Assembly: GCA_965208105.1 (NCBI GenBank)
Contig: OZ242318.1
Location: forward strand, 3,936,001 to 4,000,000
DNA: 64,000 nt
Direction: 5' to 3'
DNA from: Candidatus Latescibacterota bacterium
GTDB taxonomy: Bacteria > Latescibacterota > UBA2968 > UBA8231
Shown: piece after piece, positions 9,697 through 64,000 of the stretch
Numbering within the stretch: position 1 is the first letter of the stretch
Layout of the letters: the number at the start of each line of letters is the position of its first letter
The notes under the pieces: generated by a model
Seen by the model: only the letters and a program-made list of their open reading frames with translations
What the model was told of the DNA's origin: nothing
The model's database searches: none
Translations under genes and position numbers: made by a program

Positions 9697-9863
9697 CTAG
9701 TGCCTGCTTGCGTAATTCCGCGTGAATTCGGCCGCCGCTGCATCCCGGCTCGCGGCGTTGCCCTCCCTCGCCGTACACTCCAGGTACGACTCGCTCAGGC
9801 GCCTTGCGAGCCGGGCGCTTCTGCGCCCTCGTTCGTACGCTTAATTACGCAAGCAGGCACTAG
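9697..9863 (-). mobile_element. 167-bp MITE-like element, TIR type A
   Basis: Perfect 21-bp TIR CTAGTGCCTGCTTGCGTAATT/AATTACGCAAGCAGGCACTAG; core nearly identical to the 42700 and 44385 copies, inverted. Confidence 0.88.
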
Positions 9864-22173: not shown

Positions 22174-25100
22174 CTAAAACCGAACTGCCCCCCTCACATC
22201 TATGCGATGTTCGGCGGATTGCTGGACTCGATTGCCTCGTCCGGCGGAAACGTTGAGGTCCAGCATCTCAAAGGCCGTACCAGTGAAGCGGCCCAGTTGG
22301 AATCCAAGGCGCATTAGCGACCGCTCCGAGCTGACAGGTCCGAACTCGGCAAACGGGGTCAGCACTCCATGCAAGGGCTCGACTCGCATACTGTAGCCGA
22401 CCAGGGCATCCATGGACCAAACGTCGGGGGAAAGCCCGAAACGGCCGGTCTGGAGCGCACCGTCGCGCCACAGGGCATGGGTACCGCGGTCGGCAGCACC
22501 CCAACGCGGGGCAAGCGACATCGACAGGCCAAGGCCGTCCCTGCCCGGTGACAGGCTGGCAATGATGCTGCCTCCACTCTCCTGGTAGGTTGAATTTAAC
22601 GCAAGCATGCGGCCCCTGGCCTCGATCTGGAATCGCGACCTCGGGCACTGGTAACGCAACCCACCAGCTACCTCCAGGCCCCCGCCGGTCTGGCCATCAC
22701 CGCCGTCGTAGCGGCCACCAAGTTCACCGAAGGGAGTTATCGTTGCGCAGCTGGCCAATACCACGGTGCGAGCGCCTTCCACACCAAGGCGGAAGCGTTG
22801 ACCCGCCACGGCTTGATCGTCGAGTACTTCCTCTCCTTCGGCAGTGGAGAGATTCACGATTCCCACGTCGCCCCGGAGAGACATGTCCAACCCACCCATG
22901 GATCCCAGGGATTGCCTCGCTCCCAGGAGCCCCAGGGACATGGAGAGATCGCTTTCCTCCGTGGTAGAAGTGACCCCTCGCTCGTTTTCGGCAGTGCCTA
23001 CCCCGACGCCACCCAGGGCCCAGATGTCCATTCCGGCACTAGGTGCCCAGCGCACATAGGGATATACACTTGTCAGAACCGTGGTCAACGTGCCGCCTCC
23101 AATTGCTCCATCTCCAGAGAAGGTGTAGTTGGCCTCACCCATACTGTAGGATACCGACACACCTGCCTGACCGGTTGCGGCCACGCGCTTGTCGGCTCCG
23201 AGATATACCGTCATCAAGGTCCCGTCGTGGCTGCCGTGATCCGGGGTACCTTCGAAGGCCTGGTAGTCGCCCAGGCCCCACAAGGTCCAGTTCGGCAGTC
23301 CTTGATCGGCATCGCTGGATCCTACCGGGACGGCGAAGGAGGTGTTCCGAATGGCCTGTTTCCAGGAAATTCCTCCTCCAAGGGTGCCCAATCCGCGAGG
23401 ATAGCGGAAATCGCCCTCCAGGCCTGTGACCTGGGAAGCCAACGGATCTCTATCGCTTCCACTCAGGAGGGAAAGCCCCGCCAGGGTTGCTTTATTGGAG
23501 CCCGAACTGGAGGCGAAGCGAGCACCGATTGCCGATGAAACGCTCGATAGAGTGCTCCGGCCAATCGCTGCCAACGCGTCGCCTACAATTGCCACCTCAG
23601 CCGGTTCGGTGACCACGGTCACGACGAAGGTTTGAGAAGCATCGGGGCCAATTGTGTTCATTGCAACCACTTCAATGGTAGATTCACCTTCTATTACGGC
23701 CGCCACGGTTACCTCAGACCCCGCGACGGAAACGGTGGCAACCCCGGGATTCGAGGAGGTTGCGCTATAGTTCAGGTCAAGGCCGCGGAAATTGTCCGAA
23801 ACGTCCTCGACCCCGTCAGCACCGCCGACGTACAGCATCATGACGGGGATTGGATCGACCCTGGTCGGCTCGTCGTCGTTGTCGGTCAGAGTAATGGTCA
23901 CTGACTCGACCGTAAAGCCCTCTGCGGACCCCTCGACCACGATGGTCTCATCGTACTCGGGAATGAGCTCCTCGGGCGGGGTCAGCGTCAGGGTCCCGCT
24001 GCTTTCAGTCGTACGGGCTCCAACCGTGATCGTTGGAATCGATGCGGCGTAGTCCGTGCCTTCTTCGGCAGTTCCCGACAAGGACAGCGATACTTGCGTA
24101 TCAGTCAGCAGGGCGGTGCTGCCATCGCCCAGAACGGCCGTCACTTCGAACGAGGTTTCCCCATCTCCTTCGTCAAAGCTGGGCACGTCCACGCTCAGAG
24201 TGATGGAGGTTGGCGCCACATCGTTGTCGGTCACGGTCAGCTCGACAGAAGCGATTTCGAACCCCTCGGCGCTGCCTTCGAGGACGATGATCTCGTCTCC
24301 CTCAGCCAGGTTGTCGTCCACCAGAGAAATGGGAATGGTTGCGCTGCCCGTCGTGCCCCTGGCGGCGATGGTCAGAGTGGCAGCTGTGGCGGCATTGTCT
24401 TCGCTTTCGGCCACCGAGAGGGCGACCTGGGTGTCGGTCAACAGGGCGGTGCTGCCGTCGCCCAGGACCGCCGACACCGTGGCCTCGCCGCCGGTCCCTT
24501 CGTCGAAGCTGGACACGTCCACGCTCAGAGAGATGGTGGTCGGCATCACGTCGTTGTCGGTTACGGTCAACTCGACGGAGGCGATACCATATCCCTCGGC
24601 GCTGCCTTCGAGGACGATGGTTTCGTCGCCCTCGACCAGGTTGTCGTCCACCAGGGAAATGGGAATGGTTGCGCTGCCCGTCGTGCCCCTGGCGGCGATG
24701 GTCAGAGTGGCAGCTGTGGCGGCATTGTCTTCGCTTTCGGCCACCGAGAGGGCGACCTGGATGTCGGTCAGCAGGGCGGTGCTGCCGTCGCCCAGGACCG
24801 CGGTCACCGTGGCCTCGCCGCCGGTCCCTTCGTCGAAGCTGGACACGTCCACGCTCAGAGAGATGGTGGTCGGCATCACGTCGTTGTCGGTCACGGTCAA
24901 CTCGACGGAGGCGATATCATATCCCTCGGCGCTGCCTTCGAGGACGATGGTTTCGTCGCCCTCGACCAGGTTGTCGTCCACCAGGGAAATGGGAATGGTT
25001 GCGCTGCCTGCCGTCTCCCTGGCGGGAATGGTCAGGGTGGCTTCGGCGGCGGCGTTGTCTTCGCTTTCGGTCACCGAGAGGGCGACCTGGGTGTCGGTCA

Positions 25101-27747
25101 GCAGGGCGGTGCTGCCGTCGCCCAAGACCGCGGTCACCGTGGCCTCGCCGCCGGTCCCTTCGTCGAAGCTGGACACGTCCACGCTCAGAGAGATGGTGGT
25201 CGGCATCACGTCGTTGTCGGTCACGGTCAACTCGACGGAGGCGATTTCAAACCCTTCGGCGCTGCCTTCGAGTGCGATGGTTTCGTCGCCCTCGACCAGG
25301 TTGTCGTCCACTAGAAAGAAGGGAAGGGTTGCGCTGCCTGTCGTCTCTGTGGCGGGAATGGTCAGGGTGGCTTCGGCGCCGGCATTGTCTTCACTTTCGG
25401 CCACCGAGAGGGCGACCTGGGTGTCGACCAACAGGGCGGCGCTGCCGTCGCCCAAGACCGCGGTCACCACGACCTGGCCTCCCGGACCTTCTTCAAAGCT
25501 GTTCGGGTCGAGGCTCAGAGAGATGGTGGTCGGCATCACGTCGTTGTCGGTTACCGTCAACTCGACGGAGGCGATTTCAAATCCACCTGCGCTGCCTTCG
25601 AGTGCGATGGCTTCGTCACCCTCGACCAGGTTGTCGTCCACCAGGGACAGGGGCAGGCTCACGCTGCCTGTCGTCTCCCTGGCGGGAATGGTCAGGGTGG
25701 CTTCGGCGCCGGCATTGTCTTCACTTTCGGCCACCGAGAGGGCGACCTGGGTGTCGACCAACAAGGCGGCGCTGCCGTCGCCCAAGACCGCGGTCACCGT
25801 CACCTCGCCGCCCGTTCCTTCATCGAAACTGGATGCGTCCACGCCCAGAGAGATGGTGGTCGGCATCACGTCGTTGTCGGTTACCGTCAACTCGACGGAG
25901 GCGATTTCAAATCCACCTGCGCTGCCTTCGAGTGCGATGGCTTCGTCACCCTCGACCAGGTTGTCGTCCACCAGGGACAGGGGCAGGCTCACGCTGCCTG
26001 TCGTCTCCCTGGCGGGAATGGTCAGGGTGGCTTCGGCGCCGGCATTGTCTTCACTTTCGGCCACCGAGAGGGCGACCTGGGTGTCGGTCAACAGGGCGGT
26101 GCTGCCGTCGCCCAAGACCGCGGTCACCGTCACCTCGCCGCCCCTTCCTTCATCAAAACTGGATGCGTCCACGCTCAGAGAGATGGTCGTCGGCATCACG
26201 TCGTTGTCGATTACCGTCAACTCGACGGAGGCGATTTCCAGACCATCTGCGTTGCCTTCGAGTGTGATGGTCTCGTCACCCTCGACCAGGTTGTCGTCCA
26301 CCAGGGATATGGGCAGGGTTGCGCTGCCTGTCGTCTCTGTGGCGGGAATGGTCAGAGTGGCAACTGTGGCTGCATTGTCTTCGCTTTCGGCCACCGAGAG
26401 GGCGACCTGGGTGTCGGTCAACAGGGCGGTGCTGCCGTCGCCCAAGACCGCGGTCACCGTCACCTCGCCGCCCCTTCCTTCATCGAAACTGGATGCGTCC
26501 ACGCTCAGGGTAACGGAAGTGGGCGCCACATCATTGTCGCTCAACCCGACCATGGCCGATTCGACGATGAAACCGGGGGAAACACCCGACACTTCGATCG
26601 TCTCTTCGCCTTCGGCCAAATTATCCTCGATCAAGGTTAAGGCTATGGTTCCCGACCCTTCTGCTTGCTCGGCGGGAATCGTAATGGTCAGCTCGGAGGC
26701 CTCGTAGTCGGGGCCGAATTCCACGTGAGTGCCGGACAGCGACACCACCACTTCCGTGTCCACCAGAAGGACAGTGGAGCCGTCACCCAGCAGGCCTGTC
26801 ACGTTGACCGAGACTCCTCCTTCCCCTTCCCCAACGTTGGAAGGATCGACTGAAAGGGAAATCGAAGTCGGGGTTATGTCGTTATCCGTCAAGGCAACCT
26901 CTGCGGTGGAAACCTCCAGATCCTGGGCGTCCACAGTGGCACCACCGGTGGCGGAGGATGAACCCACGATCACGATGGTCTCGGGATCATCCCCTTCTAC
27001 GATGTTGTCGTCGTTGATGTTCAGGGTCAGGATCGTCCTTCCCTCGGTTCCGCCGGCTGGAATGACAACTTCCTGATCACCCAACTCCCCAACGTAATCT
27101 CGGCCATCCACATTCTCCGCCGTACCAGACAAGGAGAGCTGAATCGGGGTGGCAAGGGACCACGACTTGCTCAAGGTCGCGGTTACGACCGAATTCACCA
27201 CACCATCATCCTCGGCTACACTGTTGGGGTCAACAGACAGGGTTACAGTGGGCAGAGTAAAGTCAATTTGAGGACTGGCCTCGGCGGGGATGCTCTCTTC
27301 GCCACTAATCGTAGAGATGGTAGTGACAGAAAAGGTATAAGTTGCACCCAGGGTGAGAGAGTTGTCCACGAAGGAGGTCTGGCCGGAGGGAACAGTACCT
27401 AATAGTGCAGGTTCGGAACCTCCTGAGGCTGAACGCCACACATTATACCCAGCCACATCGTTGAAATTGAGAAAGTTTCCCTCAGAGGTAAAATTGCTGC
27501 CGGCCGGGACACTGCGCAGTTGGTCATTCGGCGACAGGTTCCAGGAGATGGTGACACTCCTTCCGTCCGCGCTTAGGTCAGCCCGAACCCCGCTGATCGG
27601 CTCAAAGACTCGCTCAGCGCTACCCCCCGCTCCGGACCCATCCTCTGTGCTGCCCGTGAGCTGTGCTGCCAGGGGGCTTGAGCACAGGAAAACGCTCAGG
27701 CCCAGCAGAATGGAAATTGTGATTAGGCCTTCTTTACTTCTTGACAT
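22174..27747 (-). CDS. Giant acidic autotransporter adhesin: signal peptide, FN3-like domain, about 10 Calx-beta-like repeats, Ig-like domain, beta-barrel
   Basis: ATG at 27747 after GAGGAGG; DDNLVEGDET...TDND repeats; C-terminal barrel motifs (YPYVRW, GGGLEVAGGLRY) and terminal Phe. Confidence 0.88.
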   Translation of the reverse strand: MSRSKEGLITISILLGLSVFLCSSPLAAQLTGSTEDGSGAGGSAERVFEPISGVRADLSADGRSVTISWNLSPNDQLRSVPAGSNFTSEGNFLNFNDVAGYNVWRSASGGSEPALLGTVPSGQTSFVDNSLTLGATYTFSVTTISTISGEESIPAEASPQIDFTLPTVTLSVDPNSVAEDDGVVNSVVTATLSKSWSLATPIQLSLSGTAENVDGRDYVGELGDQEVVIPAGGTEGRTILTLNINDDNIVEGDDPETIVIVGSSSATGGATVDAQDLEVSTAEVALTDNDITPTSISLSVDPSNVGEGEGGVSVNVTGLLGDGSTVLLVDTEVVVSLSGTHVEFGPDYEASELTITIPAEQAEGSGTIALTLIEDNLAEGEETIEVSGVSPGFIVESAMVGLSDNDVAPTSVTLSVDASSFDEGRGGEVTVTAVLGDGSTALLTDTQVALSVAESEDNAATVATLTIPATETTGSATLPISLVDDNLVEGDETITLEGNADGLEIASVELTVIDNDVMPTTISLSVDASSFDEGRGGEVTVTAVLGDGSTALLTDTQVALSVAESEDNAGAEATLTIPARETTGSVSLPLSLVDDNLVEGDEAIALEGSAGGFEIASVELTVTDNDVMPTTISLGVDASSFDEGTGGEVTVTAVLGDGSAALLVDTQVALSVAESEDNAGAEATLTIPARETTGSVSLPLSLVDDNLVEGDEAIALEGSAGGFEIASVELTVTDNDVMPTTISLSLDPNSFEEGPGGQVVVTAVLGDGSAALLVDTQVALSVAESEDNAGAEATLTIPATETTGSATLPFFLVDDNLVEGDETIALEGSAEGFEIASVELTVTDNDVMPTTISLSVDVSSFDEGTGGEATVTAVLGDGSTALLTDTQVALSVTESEDNAAAEATLTIPARETAGSATIPISLVDDNLVEGDETIVLEGSAEGYDIASVELTVTDNDVMPTTISLSVDVSSFDEGTGGEATVTAVLGDGSTALLTDIQVALSVAESEDNAATAATLTIAARGTTGSATIPISLVDDNLVEGDETIVLEGSAEGYGIASVELTVTDNDVMPTTISLSVDVSSFDEGTGGEATVSAVLGDGSTALLTDTQVALSVAESEDNAATAATLTIAARGTTGSATIPISLVDDNLAEGDEIIVLEGSAEGFEIASVELTVTDNDVAPTSITLSVDVPSFDEGDGETSFEVTAVLGDGSTALLTDTQVSLSLSGTAEEGTDYAASIPTITVGARTTESSGTLTLTPPEELIPEYDETIVVEGSAEGFTVESVTITLTDNDDEPTRVDPIPVMMLYVGGADGVEDVSDNFRGLDLNYSATSSNPGVATVSVAGSEVTVAAVIEGESTIEVVAMNTIGPDASQTFVVTVVTEPAEVAIVGDALAAIGRSTLSSVSSAIGARFASSSGSNKATLAGLSLLSGSDRDPLASQVTGLEGDFRYPRGLGTLGGGISWKQAIRNTSFAVPVGSSDADQGLPNWTLWGLGDYQAFEGTPDHGSHDGTLMTVYLGADKRVAATGQAGVSVSYSMGEANYTFSGDGAIGGGTLTTVLTSVYPYVRWAPSAGMDIWALGGVGVGTAENERGVTSTTEESDLSMSLGLLGARQSLGSMGGLDMSLRGDVGIVNLSTAEGEEVLDDQAVAGQRFRLGVEGARTVVLASCATITPFGELGGRYDGGDGQTGGGLEVAGGLRYQCPRSRFQIEARGRMLALNSTYQESGGSIIASLSPGRDGLGLSMSLAPRWGAADRGTHALWRDGALQTGRFGLSPDVWSMDALVGYSMRVEPLHGVLTPFAEFGPVSSERSLMRLGFQLGRFTGTAFEMLDLNVSAGRGNRVQQSAEHRIDVRGAVRF
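24221..26540 (-). repeat. Seven near-identical 330-bp (110-aa) tandem repeats
   Basis: TC(G/A)TTGTCG recurs at 24221, 24551, 24881, 25211, 25541, 25871, 26201 and 26531. Confidence 0.95.
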
Positions 27748-27984
27748 TTTCGATATCCTCCTCAACGATTTTCCCGCAAATGTAGGAATGAAAATTTAGA
27801 GTTAGAATTTGATTTGGAATTGGAATTCTCAGATGCCCTTCGTCCTGTTTGTGAAATAATTACATAAAGTTATGCGCAGTTATACAAATTCACATTAAAC
27901 ATTATAAGCTACGAAAAACCGCTGAGTAGCGCAACGGATTATTATGGATCAACTTCCATTTAGTGGTCCAAATCGCCCTTCTCC

Positions 27985-28227: not shown

Positions 28228-28967
28228 TAGTGCGCTGTTAAAGAGTCGGCATTGAATTTTGTATTTTGGCGAGCTTGGCATCGTCCTGGTTTCGATTTCT
28301 CCATACGAGGTATTCCTGCATGTGCTGGCCGATGTCTCGATGGTCCCTTGGGTCGCTGTTCTTGATGACGAAGTAGTGGGCGGCCGTCATGTGGCATTCG
28401 AGACGGTTCATCCAGGAGGCGTTGGTAGCGATGAAGACGAGGGAGACTCGATGCTGCCGACACCATTGCCGAATCTTTTGGGTCGCGTGCGTCGACAAAT
28501 TGTCCAGAACGAGGTAGATGCGTTGGGCCTTGCGGTAGCGGTGCCGGATGGCCTTGAGGAAAGTGAGCACCTCCGAGGCGTGCTTCTTTCGCTTGTGATG
28601 CATCCACAGGACGTCCTCGTGGACGTTGTAGGCGCCGAAGAAATAGTGACCCCGGCGTGCCGGGTGTAGGTGGCTCGGTGCCGCACCGGGTGCTTCTGCG
28701 GCGCCCAGGAGGAGCCGGCATGGGGCTTGATCTGCACGGGTCCCATTTCGTCGAAGCAGACTACGACCGAGTCCTTCGGCGCACGCCGGTAGAGGCGGTC
28801 GATGCGTTTTTTTCTGAGGAGAAATCCGGATCCTTCGACTCTTTCCAGGTGCGGGTACGTTGGTAGGTGACCTTATGCCGGTCCAAGACCTTGGCGATGG
28901 TCACGTGCGAGACCTTGGGGATCATCTTGCGCCCGACCAGACAGTCGGTCATCTTGCGCAGCGACCA
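28227..28967 (-). pseudogene. IS630-family transposase remnant, 5'-truncated and split over three frames
   Basis: WSLRKM...TWKESKDPDF; CFDEMGP; LDNLSTH...ASWMNRLE; element end CTAGTG at 28227. Confidence 0.9.
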
Positions 28968-29059
28968 CTGATATGTATTGACGGTTGTCAACCCTCTCCG
29001 GGGTGGTCGTTTCGGGTGTTATCTTTGCATAGTTTGTTCGGGGACAGATGGGACGCTGT

Positions 29060-29200
29060 AGCGACGGTTGATCCGACTGATATTCGCGGGTTGGCTACCG
29101 CCTGTCCTGGGTGCGTCGCGGAGCGGCCTCAATCTAGAGTCGAGGGTCAGCCTGAAAAGGCGCCTCATAGTGTCTTCGAGGATTCTCCTGACCGGTCCCT
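29060..29200 (-). ncRNA. Putative bridge/seek RNA in the IS110 right end
   Basis: Two stem-internal-loop-stem modules identified by eye; one loop contains ATATCAG identical to the element terminus; boundaries approximate. Confidence 0.65.
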
Positions 29201-29262
29201 TCTGTCCCGTTTCGATTTACATGAGCAAAGGTCCTATGCCGGCTTCTGAGACGATGAGCTTA

Positions 29263-30402
29263 TCAGGCGGCGATCCGAGGTCTCCTGGCCACGAGGCGGC
29301 CGGGGCGTTTCTGCTCCCAGGCGATGGCCCAGATGAAACCCAAAAGCTCCCGCGCGATCGCGGTGCAGACTTTGTTTTTCGGCATCCCTCGCCCACTCAG
29401 CCGTCGATAGCGTCCACACAGGCGTTTCTGTGCCTTCCAGGCGATGGCCTGTATGGGGGGTGCGGTCTGTTCGGCGCGTCGTTGCAAGGCGGCCGTCTTG
29501 CGGGCGGGAAAGCGATAGCACCAGGCCGCTTCCACCAGCACGCGCCGCACGTGGGCGTTGCCCGCCTTGGTGATCGCCCCTCGCTTTTGGCGGGAGCCGC
29601 TGGAATGCTCGCTGGGGACCAGACCGACGAAGGCCATCAGTTGGCGCGGCGAGTCAAAGCGGGTGAGGTCCCCCAACTCGGCCAGGGTCGTAACCGCGGT
29701 GAGCGTGTCTACCCCGCGCAGCGCCCTCATAGCCCGCGTCTCCCCTTCCAAAGACCATCCCTCCAGCGCCTGCTGCAGGGCCTGGTCCAACCCCTGGATC
29801 CGACCTTGGGCTTCCTGTACCGCGTCCACGTATTCCTGAAAGACGATCTGCTGGGCCGGATGATCGAAGCGCTGGGTCTGCAGCCAGCGAAAGTGGGCTT
29901 GGGTCCAGCGACTGCGCCCGGAGTAGATCCGGCCGTGGCGCTGCAAGAAGCTGTTCAGCCGCTGGCGCACGCGGCGCTCGGCGTGCTTGAAGTCTTCCCG
30001 GCAGCGCTCCAGATCGCGCATCGCCTCCTGCGCTTGGTCGGGCACCCACACGGGGGTCAACTCGCCGTGTTGGAAAAGCCGCACCAGAGACACAGCATCG
30101 CGGCGGTCGGTCTTGATGCGGTCGCCCGGCCGACGCGGGATCAGCGAGGGCGCCACCACCGTGCAGGCGTGCCCTAGGGCTGTGAGCTGACGGTAGACGC
30201 CGTAGCCGCAGGGTCCGGCCTCGTAGCAAAACCGCAACGACGTCTCCGAGCCGGCCAGTTTGGCCGCCAGTTGGGACAACGCGGCGCCCGTAGAAGGTAT
30301 CGTTCCATACAGGTCCGGCCCTTTTCGGCCTTCACCGGCCAGGGCGACGGTGATCGAATCTTTATGTATGTCCAAGGCGACGAATTTCGTAGATTTACGC
30401 AT
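29263..30402 (-). CDS. IS110 DEDD recombinase/transposase
   Basis: ALDIHK, CYEAG, KTDRRD and GLVPSEHSSG; AGGAGG RBS; intact 379 aa. Confidence 0.96.
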   Translation of the reverse strand: MRKSTKFVALDIHKDSITVALAGEGRKGPDLYGTIPSTGAALSQLAAKLAGSETSLRFCYEAGPCGYGVYRQLTALGHACTVVAPSLIPRRPGDRIKTDRRDAVSLVRLFQHGELTPVWVPDQAQEAMRDLERCREDFKHAERRVRQRLNSFLQRHGRIYSGRSRWTQAHFRWLQTQRFDHPAQQIVFQEYVDAVQEAQGRIQGLDQALQQALEGWSLEGETRAMRALRGVDTLTAVTTLAELGDLTRFDSPRQLMAFVGLVPSEHSSGSRQKRGAITKAGNAHVRRVLVEAAWCYRFPARKTAALQRRAEQTAPPIQAIAWKAQKRLCGRYRRLSGRGMPKNKVCTAIARELLGFIWAIAWEQKRPGRLVARRPRIAA

Positions 30403-30516
30403 GGCCTCCTCCTTTTCGCTGGGGATAGGTCTTTGGGTGAACTCCGTTTTCCCAAAGATAACCCCCGAAAACCGAAATCGGAGGAGGTCTTTCATATCTC
30501 CGTCAATACATAAGGT

Positions 30517-31410
30517 CTAGCGCTCGATCTCATCGGTATGAGAGCTGATAATTCCATATGTCTCCGGGCGGCGGTCGCGATACATGAAATGCAGGCGGCG
30601 TGCATGGAGCAGGTGGTCTCTGTCAATGACCACGTTCAGAACCTCCTCGCGGTCATTGCTGCCCTCGGTCATCAGCTCACCCAGAGGGTCGAAAGCGATG
30701 CTGCGCCCTCCCATTAGAATGGGCATGTCCGGAGCTGGCACCCAGCCAATGCTGTTGGCAGCGAGGATGTAGGCAATATTTTCGAAGGCACGGGTGGCCA
30801 GAAGCTCCTTCCAGATAGTCTTTTTCGTATCCGAGATTCCAAACGGCGCCAGAATCGCCTCGGCTCCCGACAGTGCAAGACAACGGGCAGCCTCGGGGAA
30901 GTAGGCGTCATAGCAGAGGAGGATGCCTATCTTCCAGGCCCCGATCCGGAATACCGGATAGCGAGAGCCGGTGCGGAAGTAGATCGACTCGATTCCCAGG
31001 TCCGTTACTATCTCACCGTCGATCAGGATGTGCCTCTGGCCGCCAATATGGGTCTTGCGGTACTTGCCGACGATGTCCCCTCCGGGCCCGATCAGGATGG
31101 CCGTGTCGTAGAACAGATCGGTTCCGTCGCGCTCGAAGATGGTAGCCACGATATGGCACCGGTACTGTGCGGCTTTCGATCTCATGGTGGCTATGGCAGG
31201 ATCCTCAACGGTGGATGCGAGGTCGAAAAGGGCATAGTCGCGCGAGGCAGGGAAGAAGCCGGTGCTCCAGTACTCGGGCAGAAGGATCGCGTCGGAACCC
31301 TCCGCAGCCGCCAGGTCGACGAGGCGAACGGCCGTCTCGATGTTGCGTTCGACTTCTCCGACCGCGCTTTCCATCTGGATCAGCCCGACATTTAAATTTT
31401 CAGGAGCCAT
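30517..31410 (-). CDS. Carbon-nitrogen hydrolase (nitrilase superfamily)
   Basis: Catalytic triad LPEY, YRKTH, LCYD; RAFEN; RDRRPETY. Confidence 0.92.
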   Translation of the reverse strand: MAPENLNVGLIQMESAVGEVERNIETAVRLVDLAAAEGSDAILLPEYWSTGFFPASRDYALFDLASTVEDPAIATMRSKAAQYRCHIVATIFERDGTDLFYDTAILIGPGGDIVGKYRKTHIGGQRHILIDGEIVTDLGIESIYFRTGSRYPVFRIGAWKIGILLCYDAYFPEAARCLALSGAEAILAPFGISDTKKTIWKELLATRAFENIAYILAANSIGWVPAPDMPILMGGRSIAFDPLGELMTEGSNDREEVLNVVIDRDHLLHARRLHFMYRDRRPETYGIISSHTDEIER

Positions 31411-36825: not shown

Positions 36826-36958
36826 GGGCCGCCGAGGCGCCCGGCTCACAAGGCGCCTGAGCGAGTCGTACCAGTGGTGTACGGCGAGTGAAGGCAACGC
36901 CGTGAGCCGGGATGGATCGGCGGAATAATGGCGACATATTTCTGCGACGGGACACTAA
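36826..36958 (+). mobile_element. Left-truncated copy of the 168-bp element, TIR type B
   Basis: Nearly identical to 42735-42867; ends GGGACACTAA overlapping the cupin TAG stop. Confidence 0.88.
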
Positions 36959-42699: not shown

Positions 42700-42867
42700 C
42701 TAGTGTCCCGTCGCAGAGATAGGTTGACGAAATTGGGCCGCCGAGGCGCCAGGCTCACAAGGCGCCTGAGCGAGTCGTACCAATGGTGTACGGCGAGTGA
42801 AGGCAACGCCGTGAGCCGGGATGGATCGGCGGAATAATGGCGACATATTTCTGCGACGGGATACTAG
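42700..42867 (+). mobile_element. 168-bp MITE-like element, TIR type B
   Basis: CTAGTGTCCCGTCGCAGA...TCTGCGACGGGATACTAG. Confidence 0.92.
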
Positions 42868-44209: not shown

Positions 44210-44384
44210 TGGTTTCAGATCCTCCTTTCTCAGTGCCTGCCTCCATTCCCGGAGGGCTCTTCGGGGTGAATCGGAGTTGCGGCAAAGGGAGTCCCCGCGC
44301 CGCTCCTCCCCCCAGCAAAGAACTTCCGGGCCTGCGATGCATTCGGTCCGCAAGGGAACCGGAGCAGGGGAGCAATGCCGGCAG

Positions 44385-44552
44385 CTAGTGTCCCGTCGCG
44401 GAGCTAGGTTGACCAAATTGGGCCGCTGAGGCGCCCGGCTCGCAAGGCGCCTGAGCGAGTCGTCCCGGTGGTGTACGGCGAGTGAAGGCAACGCCCTGAG
44501 CCGGGATGGATCTGCGGAAAGATGGCGACAAATTTCTGCGACGGGACCCTAG
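44385..44552 (+). mobile_element. 168-bp MITE-like element, TIR type B
   Basis: CTAGTGTCCCGTCGC...GCGACGGGACCCTAG; the right CTAG contains the TAG stop of 44549-45415. Confidence 0.92.
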
Positions 44553-61702: not shown

Positions 61703-62725
61703 ATGCTCCGCTCTCTCATGGTTCTGGCCATTTCAGCCGCAATGACAGGTCTCCTCGGAGCCCTGGACATCGAGGAGCAGTTGAGCCTGGAAAGAGAGCA
61801 GGACCTGGTCATCGAAGGCCGTGTCGACTGGGGAGAAAACCTGCTCATCGCCTACGGAGAAAGTGCTGCGACCGAGGCGTTGACCGATCCGGTACAGCGG
61901 CGCTTGATGGGGTTTCGCGCCGCCAAAGCGGCGGCTTACCGCAATCTGCTGGTGCTTGCCGGGGAGGTGCAGATTGACGCAGGGACCAAGGCAGGGGCGG
62001 CGATGGCGGGCAACGACACCCTGCGCTCGCGCATTGCCGCAATTGTCCGGGCTGCCCGTGTGAAACCCGGAAGCAATCGCGAAGTCGACGGAGCCTATCG
62101 CCTTGCCCTGCAACTCAATCTTCTCGACGATTTTGCCGATGCCGTGCTGTCCGTCCTGACATCCGACCCGCATGGATGGGCATTCGCATCAGGCTTGGCT
62201 GACACCCTGGCACCGTATATTCCGGCAGCGCCCTATAGCGGCCTGCTGGTCGATGCGCGCGGCCTCGCCGTGAGGCCCTGCATGGCACCGCGCATCCTTG
62301 GGAAGAACGGCGGTGTCCTCTACAGCGCCGGATCGGTCGAACGCCACCAGGCTACTCGCATGGGCGTGGTAGGATACTACGATGACATGGAGGAGGCTGC
62401 TTCCAGTGACCGCCTGGGAGGGGAGGAAGCAGATCCCCTGATTGTCAAAGCCGAGGAAGTAGCGGGATTATTCAACGGCGATGTGGTACTGGGCGACGAA
62501 GATGCCCTTCGCCTATACCTGGCCAGCGAAGAATCCAACTTGCTGGGCGGATGCCGGGTCGCTCTCGTTATTGGTCCGGAGCCGGTATCGATTGATTCAA
62601 CTTTGGCCGATTCCACCTTGCTGGACTCCACTCTTCTCGACTCCACCCTGCAGATTTTCCCTCACTTGGAGGAGAACATCCATGACCTTCCAGGAGAAGC
62701 TGGCGCAGGCAGTTGCCCGGAATAA
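61703..62725 (+). CDS. Secreted LPP20-like hypothetical protein with a (DSTL-x)4 tail
   Basis: GGAGG RBS; signal peptide; RAAK..AYRNL and YSGLLVDARG..PCMAPRI motifs. Confidence 0.65.
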   Translation: MLRSLMVLAISAAMTGLLGALDIEEQLSLEREQDLVIEGRVDWGENLLIAYGESAATEALTDPVQRRLMGFRAAKAAAYRNLLVLAGEVQIDAGTKAGAAMAGNDTLRSRIAAIVRAARVKPGSNREVDGAYRLALQLNLLDDFADAVLSVLTSDPHGWAFASGLADTLAPYIPAAPYSGLLVDARGLAVRPCMAPRILGKNGGVLYSAGSVERHQATRMGVVGYYDDMEEAASSDRLGGEEADPLIVKAEEVAGLFNGDVVLGDEDALRLYLASEESNLLGGCRVALVIGPEPVSIDSTLADSTLLDSTLLDSTLQIFPHLEENIHDLPGEAGAGSCPE

Positions 62726-63536
62726 CTCGCTGCTCTGCATCGGGCTGGACCCGGACCCGCGACAACTGCCGCAAAGGGCGCAAACCGAGGAGAATCCCGT
62801 CCTCTACTTCAATCGCCGGATTATAGAGGCCACCTCCGACCTGGTTTGCGCATACAAACCCAATTTCGCCTTCTATGGTGCTCTCGGGTCAGAGGGCTGG
62901 CCCACCCTGCGAGCGACCCTGTCCCATGTGCCTCCTTCCATTCCCATCGTCATCGACGCCAAGGTGGGAGATATCGGCTATACTGCGGAAAAGTACGCCA
63001 CCATGTTCTTCCATGAGCTCGGCGCCGATGCCGTGACGGCAAACCCCTACATGGGCGGGGACGCGGTAGCTCCCCTGCTGCAGTATGCGGACAAAGGCGT
63101 CTTTCTCCTCTGCCTGACTTCCAACGATGGAGCCCGGGACTTCGAAACGCTGTCGCTGGGGGACCGTCCACTCTACGAACATGTCGCCCTCAAGGCGGGA
63201 TCGTGGAATCGGAACGGCAACTGCGGATTGGTGGTTGGCGCCACCCGGTCAGATGCCATGGAGAAAATTCGCTCCCTGGCTCCAGATCTGCCTTTTCTCG
63301 TTCCTGGAGTTGGAGCTCAGGGCGGCGACCTGACGACTGCCGTGTCCTGCGGCCAGGATGGAGCCGGAGGTGGAGTGCTGATCAACGCTTCACGTTCCGT
63401 TCTCTACGCCGGGAATGGTGACGACTTCGCCATGCTTGCGCGCCAGGCGGCCTGCAAGTTGCGCGACGAGATAAACCGCTGTCGCACCCGAGTTGGGGAG
63501 GGGCTTGCGACCACGAGGATTGGTGTGTCAGGATGA
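62682..63536 (+). CDS. pyrF: Orotidine-5'-phosphate decarboxylase
   Basis: LCIGLDP, YKPN, DAKVGDIG, PYMG, GLVVGAT, PGVGAQGG, NASR. Confidence 0.96.
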   Translation: MTFQEKLAQAVARNNSLLCIGLDPDPRQLPQRAQTEENPVLYFNRRIIEATSDLVCAYKPNFAFYGALGSEGWPTLRATLSHVPPSIPIVIDAKVGDIGYTAEKYATMFFHELGADAVTANPYMGGDAVAPLLQYADKGVFLLCLTSNDGARDFETLSLGDRPLYEHVALKAGSWNRNGNCGLVVGATRSDAMEKIRSLAPDLPFLVPGVGAQGGDLTTAVSCGQDGAGGGVLINASRSVLYAGNGDDFAMLARQAACKLRDEINRCRTRVGEGLATTRIGVSG

Positions 63537-63561
63537 GCCCATCCCCGGTCGAGGAGCCGGA

Positions 63562-63610
63562 GGCCGGTTTCCATCTGTTCCGGGTGCGTCGTGGAGCGGC
63601 CTCGGTCTAG
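63562..63610 (-). mobile_element. Relic of an IS110 right-end (bridge-RNA) sequence
   Basis: 38/49 ungapped identity to 29089-29137. Confidence 0.7.
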
Positions 63611-64000
63611 ACCTTATGTATTGACGGAGATATGAAAGACCTCCTCCGACTCGGTTGTCGGGGGTTATCTTTGGGAAAACGGAGTTCACCCAAAGACCTA
63701 TCCCCAGCGAGAAGGAGGAGGCCATGCGTAAATCTACGAAATTCGTCGCCTTGGACATACATAAAGATTCGATCACCGTCGCCCTGGCCGGTGAAGGCCG
63801 AAAAGGGCCAGACCTGTATGGAACGATACCGTCTACGGGCGCCGCGTTGTCCAAGCTGGCGGGCCAACTGGCCCGTGGTGGGACCTCGTTGCGGTTTTGC
63901 TACGAGGCCGGACCCTGCGGCTACGGCGTCTACCGTCAGCTCACAGCCCTGGGGCACGCCTGCACGGTGGTGGCGCCCTCGCTGATCCCGCGTCGGCCGG
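63607..64000 (+). mobile_element. Second IS110 copy (left end and transposase 5' part), truncated by window edge
   Basis: Left end nearly identical to the reverse complement of 30403-30520. Confidence 0.93.
63724..64000 (+). CDS. IS110 transposase, partial
   Basis: MRKSTKFVALDIHKDSITVA...CYEAGPCG. Confidence 0.93.
   Translation, partial: MRKSTKFVALDIHKDSITVALAGEGRKGPDLYGTIPSTGAALSKLAGQLARGGTSLRFCYEAGPCGYGVYRQLTALGHACTVVAPSLIPRRP

Follow-up and report, generated by a model that had tools for sequence, protein, structure and literature searches.

The left junction of the second copy of an IS110-family IS, which lies near the end of the 64,000-nucleotide stretch of DNA analyzed here (the window), is best explained by three successive layers of mobile DNA: the relic of an old IS, a MITE, and then IS copy 2. 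We put the probability of this three-layer explanation at about 85%. The locus is an ordinary pile-up of mobile DNA, in which nesting occurs about as often as chance predicts, and the IS itself is an IS1111-type bridge-RNA element that targets the ends of IS630-type elements.

The anatomy of the IS was consistent across its 12 copies in the genome, two of which fall at least partly in the window (Table 1). The transposase of copy 2 is intact (379 aa, 98% identity), and both transposase domains scored above the curated cut-offs (PF01548, E = 3.5e-13; PF02371, E = 1.7e-22). Sub-terminal inverted repeats of 13 bp (TATGTATTGACGG and CCGTCAATACATA) were found in 12 of 12 copies, with asymmetric terminal extensions that total 8 bp. 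Between the stop codon and the right end lies a non-coding region of 300 nt, while the left non-coding end measures ~115 nt. Insertion was both site- and orientation-specific: all 12 copies sit at CT-AG-TG, without a target duplication, and read CTAG at the left and ...ATATCAG-TG at the right. Occupied MITE ends differ from free ones by exactly the IS, the two sharing just AG. Transposase domains, sub-terminal repeats, downstream non-coding region and site-specificity, taken together with the bridge/seek RNA predicted below, assign the element to the IS1111 group, as far as its sequence can tell.

Table 1. Features at the two IS copies and around the copy 2 junction (window positions unless marked as genome positions).
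Feature	Position	Strand	Basis or remark
5'-truncated IS630-like element adjoining the right end of copy 1	28238..28965	-	DDE_3, E 4.3e-10
IS copy 1, IS110 family, IS1111 type, 379-aa DEDD transposase	28966..30520	-	PF01548 + PF02371
Predicted bridge/seek RNA scaffold, copy 1	29061..29188	-	62 distinct relatives aligned; compensatory pairs in RNAalifold consensus
3' loop strand CTCTAGA, predicted left target guide + core	29133..29139	-	Left-flank co-variation, 21 relatives
5' loop strand AAGACACTA, predicted right target guide	29168..29176	-	Right-flank co-variation, 51 relatives
ORF with pyrF (orotidine 5'-phosphate decarboxylase)	62481..63536	+	PF00215, E 4.7e-31; orthologous alignment through stop
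Relic piece A of old, decayed IS110/IS1111-type element (putative)	63575..63610	-	31/36 to 29102-29137; left boundary from three-way alignment
CTAG, IS630-type insertion site, now relic/copy 2 junction	63607..63610	.	Empty-allele contigs; CTAG left of all 12 copies
IS copy 2, left end + start of transposase gene	63609..64000	+	Element 1548 bp, on to genome 4001156
162-bp MITE after copy 2	genome 4001157-4001322		Flanking TA halves counted

An IS-like match at the copy 2 junction, reported in the original prediction, was reproduced. The 49 nt at 63562-63610 align without gaps to 29089-29137 in the right end of copy 1, with 38 of 49 positions identical and 10 of the 11 mismatches being transitions, as compared to a mean best gapless score of 25.0 (maximum 30) when the 49-mer was shuffled 1000 times and aligned to both strands of the IS. 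As claimed, the match stops at the CTAG just before the left end of copy 2, and the relic lies antisense to copy 1 (minus strand) and opposed to copy 2 (plus strand), its orientation being that of the window's plus strand. Over the outermost 13 nt (63562-63574), just 7 positions agree with the IS, and a better alignment is obtained with the orthologous sequence downstream of pyrF in a same-genus genome. The secure part of the relic is the 36 nt listed as piece A, which are 86-92% identical to extant IS copies and correspond to a part of the element's downstream non-coding region that ends in the left-guide CTAG. In these 36-49 nt, the non-coding right end of a sibling IS survives as a relic. 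The same relic had also been proposed as the source of a C-terminal extension of pyrF, a suggestion that fails on position: the stop codon ends ~39 nt before the relic, and both the pyrF tail and the position of its stop are common to the same-genus genome.

Past the end of the window, the relic resumes, as had been anticipated, but it does so only after an intervening MITE, and no remnant of a transposase comes after it; all tblastn matches to the transposase outside the 12 IS copies had E > 1. This second piece, relic B, extends from genome position 4001323 to about 4001445, and its core (4001325-4001432) is 85% identical over 110 nt to window positions 29140-29249 (E = 5e-27). The order along the DNA is relic A, CTAG, IS copy 2, MITE, TA, relic B. 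An empty allele was recovered from two runs of two other studies (one contig each), in which 63610 is joined straight to genome position 4001323. It skips 1712 bp, i.e., 1548 + 162 + 2, and restores ...CTAG-CTTCGAAGG, with the relic at the empty site reading CTAGCTTCGA. Absence of both the IS and the MITE is the sole allele seen besides the reference at this locus, in four runs whose contigs break at repeats; nor was a joint of the right to the left IS end, as in a circular intermediate, listed among these contigs. The base that follows the right-hand TA is A in the studied genome; in the empty allele it is G, a difference that requires one substitution. We attribute the break at CTAG to an IS630-type insertion with duplication of the TA, and the AG of this same CTAG is the crossover dinucleotide common to target and IS. 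The TA in 5'-CTAG-3' was reportedly the subject of a study by Tenzen & Ohtsubo in 1991. The sequence of the relic site is GTCTAGCTTC.

The association with MITE ends extended over the whole genome. For 10 of the 12 IS copies the right flank belongs to the same palindromic MITE family, and the remaining two adjoin another MITE and an IS630-like element. Copy 2 has the MITE's inverted-repeat end AGTGTCCCGTCGCAGA at its right, as do 9 other copies. The MITE is small (162 bp) and non-coding, has terminal inverted repeats (GTGTCCCGTCGCAGA and its inverse), duplicates TA with a preference for CTAG, and is present in 87 full-length copies, whose 174 ends include 10 that the IS occupies. The 164 free ends carry nTAG in 124 cases, CTAG in 102, and CTAGTGTC in 65. 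At copy 1, the IS630-like element meets the IS at position 418, counted in the intact 1162-bp version of that element. This was the only IS630-like IS found in the genome (9 copies, with a DDE_3 domain); it has C-TA-GTG in common with the MITE, and its repeat diverges from the MITE's thereafter (GTGCTCTGTTAAG). A search of the genome for an autonomous element with the exact terminal repeat of the MITE gave just a second MITE family. A family termed MITE-2 adjoins a further relic, relic 2.

The downstream non-coding region is predicted to encode a bridge/seek RNA with loop strands complementary to the two target flanks. In the computed scaffold, an internal loop serves as the target loop; it is enclosed by the GGAG/CUCC plus CCUC/GAGG stems on one side and by an inner hairpin on the other. 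A second domain is formed by a GCGACG/CGUCGC stem. Within the 5' loop strand, GACACTA is exactly complementary to TAGTGTC at the MITE end. We found 223 relatives, and a looser flank pattern made the right flank usable in 51 of 60 relatives (a stricter pattern gave 5 of 60; nine relatives without a recognizable right end were excluded). Nucleotides 3-8 of the right flank agreed with the reverse complement of the 5' loop strand at, on average, 4.31 of 6 positions, a mean that register-shifted guides pull down, versus 1.77 ± 0.17 (maximum 2.39) for shuffled pairs; agreement was 6/6 in 11 of these 51 relatives and 5/6 in 18. On the other side, the left flank, over its last 2-3 nt, tracks the 3' loop strand (1.86 of 3, versus 0.79 ± 0.16 when shuffled) among the 21 relatives that matched the junction pattern. 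The left flank fits the guide U at position -2 in 4 of the 12 copies, and 7 more have C, for which a G-U wobble pair is needed. The predicted right guide reads the core and 6 further nt, the predicted left guide the core and ~2 further nt. The CTAG at 29134-29137, which had been placed in the right guide, does lie in a guide strand of the predicted RNA, but in the left one, the 3' loop strand, variants of which occur among the copies; it is with AAGACACTA that the right flank co-varies. A comparison of the non-coding region with Rfam gave no family above chance (best E = 1.8, to unrelated snoRNA models). Several k-mer candidates from matching the non-coding region to the target (ACGGGACA, CCGTCGC and TGTCCC) were unsupported as loop strands by the family alignment.

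These assignments bear directly on the explanation first offered for the locus, in which copy 2 inserted directly into the guide DNA of a sibling, whose antisense serves as a half-target, such that ISs would self-target and disable the guide genes of their relatives. The break does fall exactly within a guide strand, and the antisense of an intact non-coding region (ATCTAGAGTC) shares 8 of 10 positions with the ideal target (CTCTAGTGTC). However, copy 2 is flanked on its right by a MITE end instead of relic sequence, the relic resuming only past the MITE, and what follows AG in the relic at the empty site fits TGTC poorly. Because the CTAG strand is the left guide, the half-target logic would moreover hold in sense, not in antisense. 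A survey for IS110-in-IS110 nests yielded none: all 12 intact copies in the genome were uninterrupted, and 0 of 77 foreign loci had a second match to the non-coding-region model within 1.5 kb. We consider self-targeting extremely improbable, and the idea of RNA-guided ISs hunting the guide genes of their relatives, attractive but unsupported, was removed. As for the coincidence itself, CTAG is ten-fold depleted in this genome (1649 observed versus about 16956 expected), and a rough estimate from at least 111 IS630-type insertions and ~11 guide-DNA CTAGs predicts roughly one such hit by chance.

The relative ages of the IS copies and their MITEs are informative on the order of events. Seven IS copies are only 0-6 per 1000 apart, and their attached MITEs 18-79 per 1000, with individual pairs showing, for example, 0 versus 36 per 1000, or 1 versus 24 per 1000 for copy 2. 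MITE distances were taken from same-orientation MITEs, leaving out three flipped ones; one MITE in the IS/MITE distance comparison has the flipped orientation. Across the genome the MITEs are the older of the two, because near-identical IS copies adjoin MITEs that have diverged this far. At the copy 2 locus, the MITE would likewise have preceded the IS. Two further IS loci were uninformative on the order, since in the same-genus genome both IS and MITE are absent or the region is rearranged.

Joint movement of the IS and its neighboring MITE, as a 1712-bp composite that entered the relic CTAG in one step, would equally produce the sole allele seen, in which both are absent. Two further observations point the same way: attached MITEs are more alike than random MITE sets (0.959 versus 0.926; the observed value was attained in 0.4% of permutations), and IS distances correlate weakly with attached-MITE distances (Mantel r = 0.39, permutation fraction 0.045). 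A common cargo is nevertheless hard to reconcile with identical or near-identical IS copies next to such diverged MITEs, with attached MITEs that occur in both orientations (7 and 3), and with 7 of 10 attached MITEs that have a free MITE as their nearest relative, one of them being 100% identical to it. The IS also has other partners, namely the second MITE type, the IS630-like element and, at relic 2, the MITE-2 family. Furthermore, the complementarity of the 5' loop strand to the MITE end marks this end as a target rather than as cargo. A composite transposition thus appears very unlikely.

The origin of the relic could be followed in the same-genus genome. There, the orthologous locus, which is rearranged, contains a MITE and, after it, what remains of the IS right end on the minus strand, with orthology resuming inside relic B. 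The 107 terminal bp of the right end survive in this remnant, next to the MITE; remnant and relic are collinear and have the same orientation, and the right-hand relic boundary is identical in both genomes. Judging from this alignment, the relic is an old IS whose own insertion had been at a MITE end. Its right-guide region, ACTGCACTA, mismatches the MITE end under the ancestral copy in the sister genome. A candidate right guide of the relic, TGCACTA, for the MITE-2 ends TAGTGCC matched partially (6/7) and is contradicted by the sister-genome relic lying on a MITE-1 end. One might instead see in the relic a free-standing bridge-RNA module that was once mobile by itself, like the solo ssr9/MITEPpu9 copies of ISPpu9: it barely exceeds the non-coding region, running from ~20 nt inside the 3' end of the transposase gene to region position 173, and excerpts of PMC12288879 describe solo small-RNA modules for an IS110-family element. 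The relic in the studied genome has neither IS end, however, and the 107-bp right end retained next to a MITE in the same-genus genome, with its shared right-hand boundary, speaks for a decayed IS, making a self-mobile module a highly improbable source.

The three-layer explanation would proceed as follows. An IS110/IS1111-type element would have inserted in minus orientation at a MITE end, before the split from the same-genus genome, and would then have decayed, losing its transposase gene. In the studied lineage, a 162-bp IS630-type MITE would subsequently have entered the relic CTAG and duplicated the TA; that the CTAG it hit was the left-guide DNA of the dead element would be happenstance. 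Copy 2 would finally have inserted at the end of this new MITE, with recombination at AG, because the predicted RNA reads YC-TAG on the left (3' strand CUCUAGA) and AG-TGTC on the right (5' strand GACACU). That this recognition would proceed by RNA-guided chemistry is suggested by analogy with published work on IS621, ISEc11 and ISPpu9.

An IS1111-type element with sub-terminal inverted repeats, described by Partridge & Hall in 2003, reportedly resides in the terminal repeat of another transposon at a fixed position and orientation. The prey in that case consisted of 38-bp Tn3-family repeats, whereas here it is the TA-flanked ends of IS630-type MITEs and ISs, and the site of the studied IS, unlike that one, includes the prey's own target-site remnant (C-TA). 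The seekRNA elements ISEc11, ISPa11 and ISKpn4, in the excerpted text of PMC11187229, likewise have a downstream non-coding region, no target duplication, and a short RNA in which a top-strand-matching segment lies 5' of a bottom-strand-matching one, the two overlapping in the target. Set against the same excerpts, the transposase here is longer (379 aa versus 330-350 aa for IS1111), the terminal extensions sum to 8 bp versus 9-10 bp, and the left guide of the studied IS has, unlike theirs, only ~2 variable nt plus TAG. In the bridge RNA of IS621, as portrayed in parts of PMC11208160, internal-loop strands likewise pair with the bottom strand left and the top strand right of the target, and a second domain serves the donor. 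By comparison with those parts of PMC11208160, the RNA here would lie at the right end instead of the left, with reversed strand order, and the core is AG within a conserved TAG instead of CT. ISPpu9 and ISPpu10 of Pseudomonas putida, according to excerpts of PMC12288879, resemble the studied IS in recombining at an invariant AG, in using abundant palindromic repeats as targets, and in leaving fragments and solo modules scattered in the genome, but their targets are REP/BIME sequences instead of transposon ends. The MITE, in turn, resembles the IS630/Tc1-mariner elements and MITEs covered in portions of PMC2170065 in its terminal inverted repeats, TA duplication and CTAG preference, and the co-resident 1162-bp IS has, like IS630/Tc1-mariner elements, a DDE_3 domain, with C-TA-GTG ends as those of the MITE. 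Our literature search found no paper on IS110/IS1111 elements that target IS630-type MITE ends, and the supplementary target tables of PMC11187229 and PMC11208160 may hold such cases.

Similar arrangements may exist beyond this genome. An inverted copy of the right flank (at least 13 of 16 positions) was found within 1.5 kb downstream at 16 of 66 foreign loci, from several phyla, most of these copies being 130-165 bp away, with CTAG after them. A widespread IS1111-type clade might specialize on the TA-flanked ends of IS630-type MITEs, in a reciprocal parasitism of two transposon classes, a broader reading that we regard as rather unlikely. Its logic would be that the left guide must spell (C)TAG to read MITE ends, so that each bridge-RNA gene is also a landing pad for IS630-type elements. 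If true, a MITE in the guide CTAG would at once destroy the guide gene and provide a new IS target, and nests such as this one would be self-reinforcing, not accidental. Our analysis documents an IS1111-type bridge-RNA element that naturally targets the tip of a different transposon family, at a locus that yields a clean natural read-out of both predicted guide strands. It also provides, as a resource, 65 unoccupied perfect targets in one genome and an empty-site allele in other populations, and the co-variation over 51 relatives may aid the annotation of right-end-encoded bridge RNAs of IS1111-type elements, and of their targets.

A BLAST search of the complete 4.85-Mb genome with copy 1 as query recovered 12 copies of this IS110-family element, 11 of them full length and one internally deleted. 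Outside these copies, tblastn found no further homolog of the 379-aa transposase (domains PF01548 and PF02371) in the genome, all other matches having E values above 1. The left end reads CTAG-ACCT-TATGTATTGACGG and the right end CCGTCAATACATA-TCAG-TG in all 12 copies. The element is 1548 bp long and has 13-bp sub-terminal inverted repeats and a 300-nt non-coding region downstream of the transposase gene, features that PMC11187229 gives as typical of the IS1111 group. Comparison of occupied and free miniature-element (MITE) ends places recombination at CT-AG-TG, with AG alone common to target and IS, in agreement with the invariant AG given for ISPpu9 in PMC12288879.

While the left flanks of the 12 copies have only CTAG in common, the right flank is the same palindromic element at 10 of them. 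This is the main MITE, a 162-bp IS630-type miniature element with terminal repeats GTGTCCCGTCGCAGA, of which 87 full-length copies share at least 85% identity. Its 174 ends carry the IS at 10; the 164 free ends include 124 with nTAG, 102 with CTAG, and 65 with CTAGTGTC, a pattern that reads as the signature of IS630/Tc1-type insertion into the TA within CTAG, with TA duplicated. Tenzen and Ohtsubo are said to have described the TA in 5′-CTAG-3′ as the IS630 target in 1991. Insertion of IS630/Tc1-type elements at TA within CTAG, with TA duplication, also appears in PMC2170065. A 1162-bp IS630-like IS in the same genome (9 copies, DDE_3 domain, two-frame ORF) has the C-TA-GTG ends and CTAG flanks of the main MITE. 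The IS110 copy at genome position 2089780 adjoins a different, shorter MITE, and copy 1 adjoins an internal site of the 1162-bp element: the right end of copy 1 abuts position 418 of that element, whose first 417 bp are absent. On its left, copy 1 is flanked by a carbon-nitrogen hydrolase gene, at the 3′ end, and the stop codon TAG of this gene falls within the junction CTAG. The copy 1 site looks as if the IS had inserted at the IS630-like end and an adjacent deletion had then extended to an internal AGTGG pseudo-site. The main MITE has an internal core in common with a second MITE family (167 bp, ~15 copies, ends C-TA-GTGCCTGCTTGCG).

Features of the locus and of the IS and MITE copies (window positions unless marked genome, i.e., whole contig)
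Feature	Position	Strand	Remark
Second-family MITE	9732-9828		no IS attached
1863-aa ORF	22174-27765	minus	many near-identical ~100-aa tandem repeats; C-terminal region resembles an outer-membrane beta-barrel
IS630-like element beside copy 1	28238-28965		
IS copy 1	28966-30520	minus	
Left guide (predicted)	29133-29139		CTCTAGA
Right guide (predicted)	29168-29176		AAGACACTA
Copy 1 left flank	30517-30520		
Carbon-nitrogen hydrolase gene	30517-31410	minus	
Main MITE copies	36826-36956, 42701-42865, 44383-44550		no IS attached; one truncated, two full length
pyrF ORF end	63536		
Relic piece A, secure extent	63575-63610		ends in CTAG 63607-63610
IS copy 2		plus	runs past window end
Relic piece B	genome 4001325-4001432		
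Second relic	genome 3931330-3931523		~4.5 kb before window start; terminal ~180 bp of IS right end, 88-90% identity; adjoins a second-family MITE
Defective-looking IS copy	genome 1994946-1996379		internal deletion; 1434 bp long
Defective-looking IS copy	genome 2923416-2924969		4.4% diverged; transposase in two tblastn segments
Variant left guides	genome 2703095-2703287, 2924716-2924908		copies 2701793 and 2923416
Variant left guide	genome 2091082-2091264		

The preference for these ends is mirrored in a predicted guide RNA. Scanning one genome per species yielded 223 relatives, and the analysis kept the best 80 loci (transposases 57-85% identical; hosts, by title, Ca. Latescibacterota, Gemmatimonadota, Gammaproteobacteria, Nitrospirota, and Acidobacteriota MAGs). 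Part of the non-coding region is conserved in 77 of those 80 loci (62 distinct sequences), and for it RNAalifold predicts an internal loop lying between the stems GGAG/CUCC plus CCUC/GAGG and an inner hairpin with compensatory changes, followed by a second domain closed by GCGACG/CGUCGC. The 5′ loop strand comprises 6 variable nt and a mostly conserved CUA, and the 3′ strand 3 variable nt and a mostly conserved UAGA. Among the 51 of 60 relatives whose right end could be located, the right flank begins with AG in 50, and the 6 nt after AG match the reverse complement of the variable 5′ part at 4.31 of 6 positions on average (6/6 in 11 relatives, 5/6 in 18), against 1.77 ± 0.17 (maximum 2.39) for shuffled pairs. 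For the 21 relatives with a recognizable left junction, the last 3 left-flank nt match the variable 3′ part at 1.86 of 3 positions (shuffled pairs, 0.79 ± 0.16), with 18 matches at -1, 16 at -2, and 5 at -3. In the terms of PMC11208160, this co-variation assigns the right target guide to the 5′ strand and the left target guide to the 3′ strand; the same order is reported for IS1111-type seekRNAs. Within the predicted right guide of this IS, GACACTA exactly complements the MITE-end sequence TAGTGTC. On the left, position -1 is C in all 12 flanks, and at -2 there is T in four and C in seven, where a G-U pair with the left guide is possible. The left-guide strand is CTCTAGATT in the majority of copies, CCCTAGATT in one, and CCATAGACT in two; the copies with variant left guides nonetheless all lie at CTAG left flanks, which implies action of the guide in trans or a change in it after insertion.

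The MITEs predate the IS insertions, which struck them independently. Divergence within a group of seven IS copies, copy 2 among them, is 0-6 per 1000, whereas it is 18-79 per 1000 between their attached MITEs. One pair of copies with identical IS sequences has MITEs 36 per 1000 apart, and for copy 2 and the copy at 183437 the figures are 1 for the IS and 24 for the MITE. One MITE within this seven-copy group has the opposite orientation (7 versus 3 overall), and for 7 of the 10 attached MITEs the nearest relative is a free one, to which one attached MITE is identical. Movement of IS and MITE as one composite unit is thus unlikely. Compared with random sets, the attached MITEs lie somewhat nearer the family consensus (0.959 versus 0.926; the observed value was reached in 0.4% of permutations), which fits a requirement for an intact end.

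The copy 2 locus consists, from left to right, of relic piece A, CTAG, IS copy 2, MITE, TA, A, and relic piece B, the relic being the decayed non-coding right end of a sibling IS downstream of pyrF. The original prediction held that copy 2 had inserted, antisense, into the right-guide DNA of this sibling. The alignment behind it is sound: window 63562-63610 matches 29089-29137 without gaps at 38 of 49 positions, with 10 of the 11 differences being transitions, whereas 1000 shuffled 49-mers gave, on both IS strands, a mean best match of 25 and never more than 30. The match does stop at the CTAG immediately before the copy 2 left end, and relic and copy 2 are antiparallel. The relic also resumes past copy 2, as anticipated, but only beyond the intervening MITE: piece B matches window 29140-29249 at 85% (E = 5e-27), after which weaker similarity takes in about the last 20 nt of the transposase gene and goes no further, with no transposase remnant following. 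The CTAG is indeed guide DNA, but by flank co-variation it belongs to the left guide, not the right.

We compared contigs from four public runs with this locus. In one contig each from two runs of two studies (9459 and 458 nt; depths 13.7 and 5.8), position 63610 is joined directly to genome position 4001323, skipping 1712 bp, i.e., 1548 + 162 + 2. This empty allele reads ...GGTCTAG-CTTCGAAGG... Other populations thus hold the uninterrupted relic, with a perfect CTAG at the insertion site.

The orthologous locus in a same-genus genome contains pyrF, ~75 bp, a MITE, the terminal 107 bp of the IS right end (minus strand; equivalent to window 28966-29072), which adjoins the MITE in the usual way, and ~700 bp of other sequence; orthology restarts at genome 4001421, inside relic piece B. 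The two genomes thus retain separate but collinear portions of a single ancestral insertion, whose right-hand boundary they have in common. Every extant IS copy in both genomes is 85-92% identical to the relics, and the flanks of the two genomes are 81-89% identical, which fits a relic age similar to their split. Host orthology left of the relic extends to about 63572-63584, and the first 13 nt of the 49-nt match are probably host sequence. In the right-guide region of piece B (genome ~4001395-4001403), ACTGCACTA replaces the guide of the extant element; it would pair with TAGTGCAGT, mismatches the MITE end TAGTGTCCC beside the ancestral copy in the same-genus genome, and is nearer to ends of the GTGC type, as found on the IS630-like element and on the second MITE family. 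A proposed origin of the pyrF C-terminal extension from the relic fails, as the tail ends ~39 nt upstream of it and the same-genus genome shares both tail and stop position. Similarity at the DNA level with more distant members of the family dwindles near 63477-63490, and the tail is lineage-specific.

Chance could supply such a nest. CTAG occurs 1649 times in the genome against ~16,956 expected from base composition (~ten-fold under-represented), and IS630-type MITEs flank a sizeable share of these sites. The IS has one internal CTAG, within the left guide, lost in two copies (2701793 and 2923416), which have CCATAGAC there. With at least 111 IS630-type insertions (87 + about 15 + 9), ~7% of ~1550 CTAG sites available before insertion were used, and for ~11 guide CTAGs we roughly estimate about one chance insertion; one interruption was seen, and the copy concerned is dead. 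All 12 intact copies are free of interruptions, and in 77 foreign loci the non-coding-region model found no second match within 1.5 kb, a survey that would overlook pieces shorter than ~40 nt and any lying farther away. With the MITE intervening and no other nested case in these sets, self-targeting of sibling guides is not supported: the MITE end explains the copy 2 site, and the relic does not. The locus is a three-layer nest arising from two ordinary target preferences.

Our literature searches brought up no account of IS110/IS1111 elements targeting IS630-type MITE ends; the closest precedent found is IS4321/IS5075, which occupies the terminal repeats of transposons of the Tn21 family. At foreign loci L016, L017, L021, L030-L035, L044, L052, and L072, relatives from several Gammaproteobacteria MAGs share near-identical right flanks AGGAG(C/T/G)CTGTCGGACTTA, with an inverted flank copy ~160 bp downstream that ends in CTAG, which suggests a widespread MITE family as prey. 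Overall, 16 of the 66 foreign loci with a recognizable right end repeat the right-flank sequence in inverted orientation downstream within 1.5 kb (at least 13 of 16 positions). Most of these inverted copies are 130-165 bp away and one is 1180 bp away, and most end in CTAG. It therefore seems common in this IS clade to target the TA-flanked ends of MITEs or ISs.
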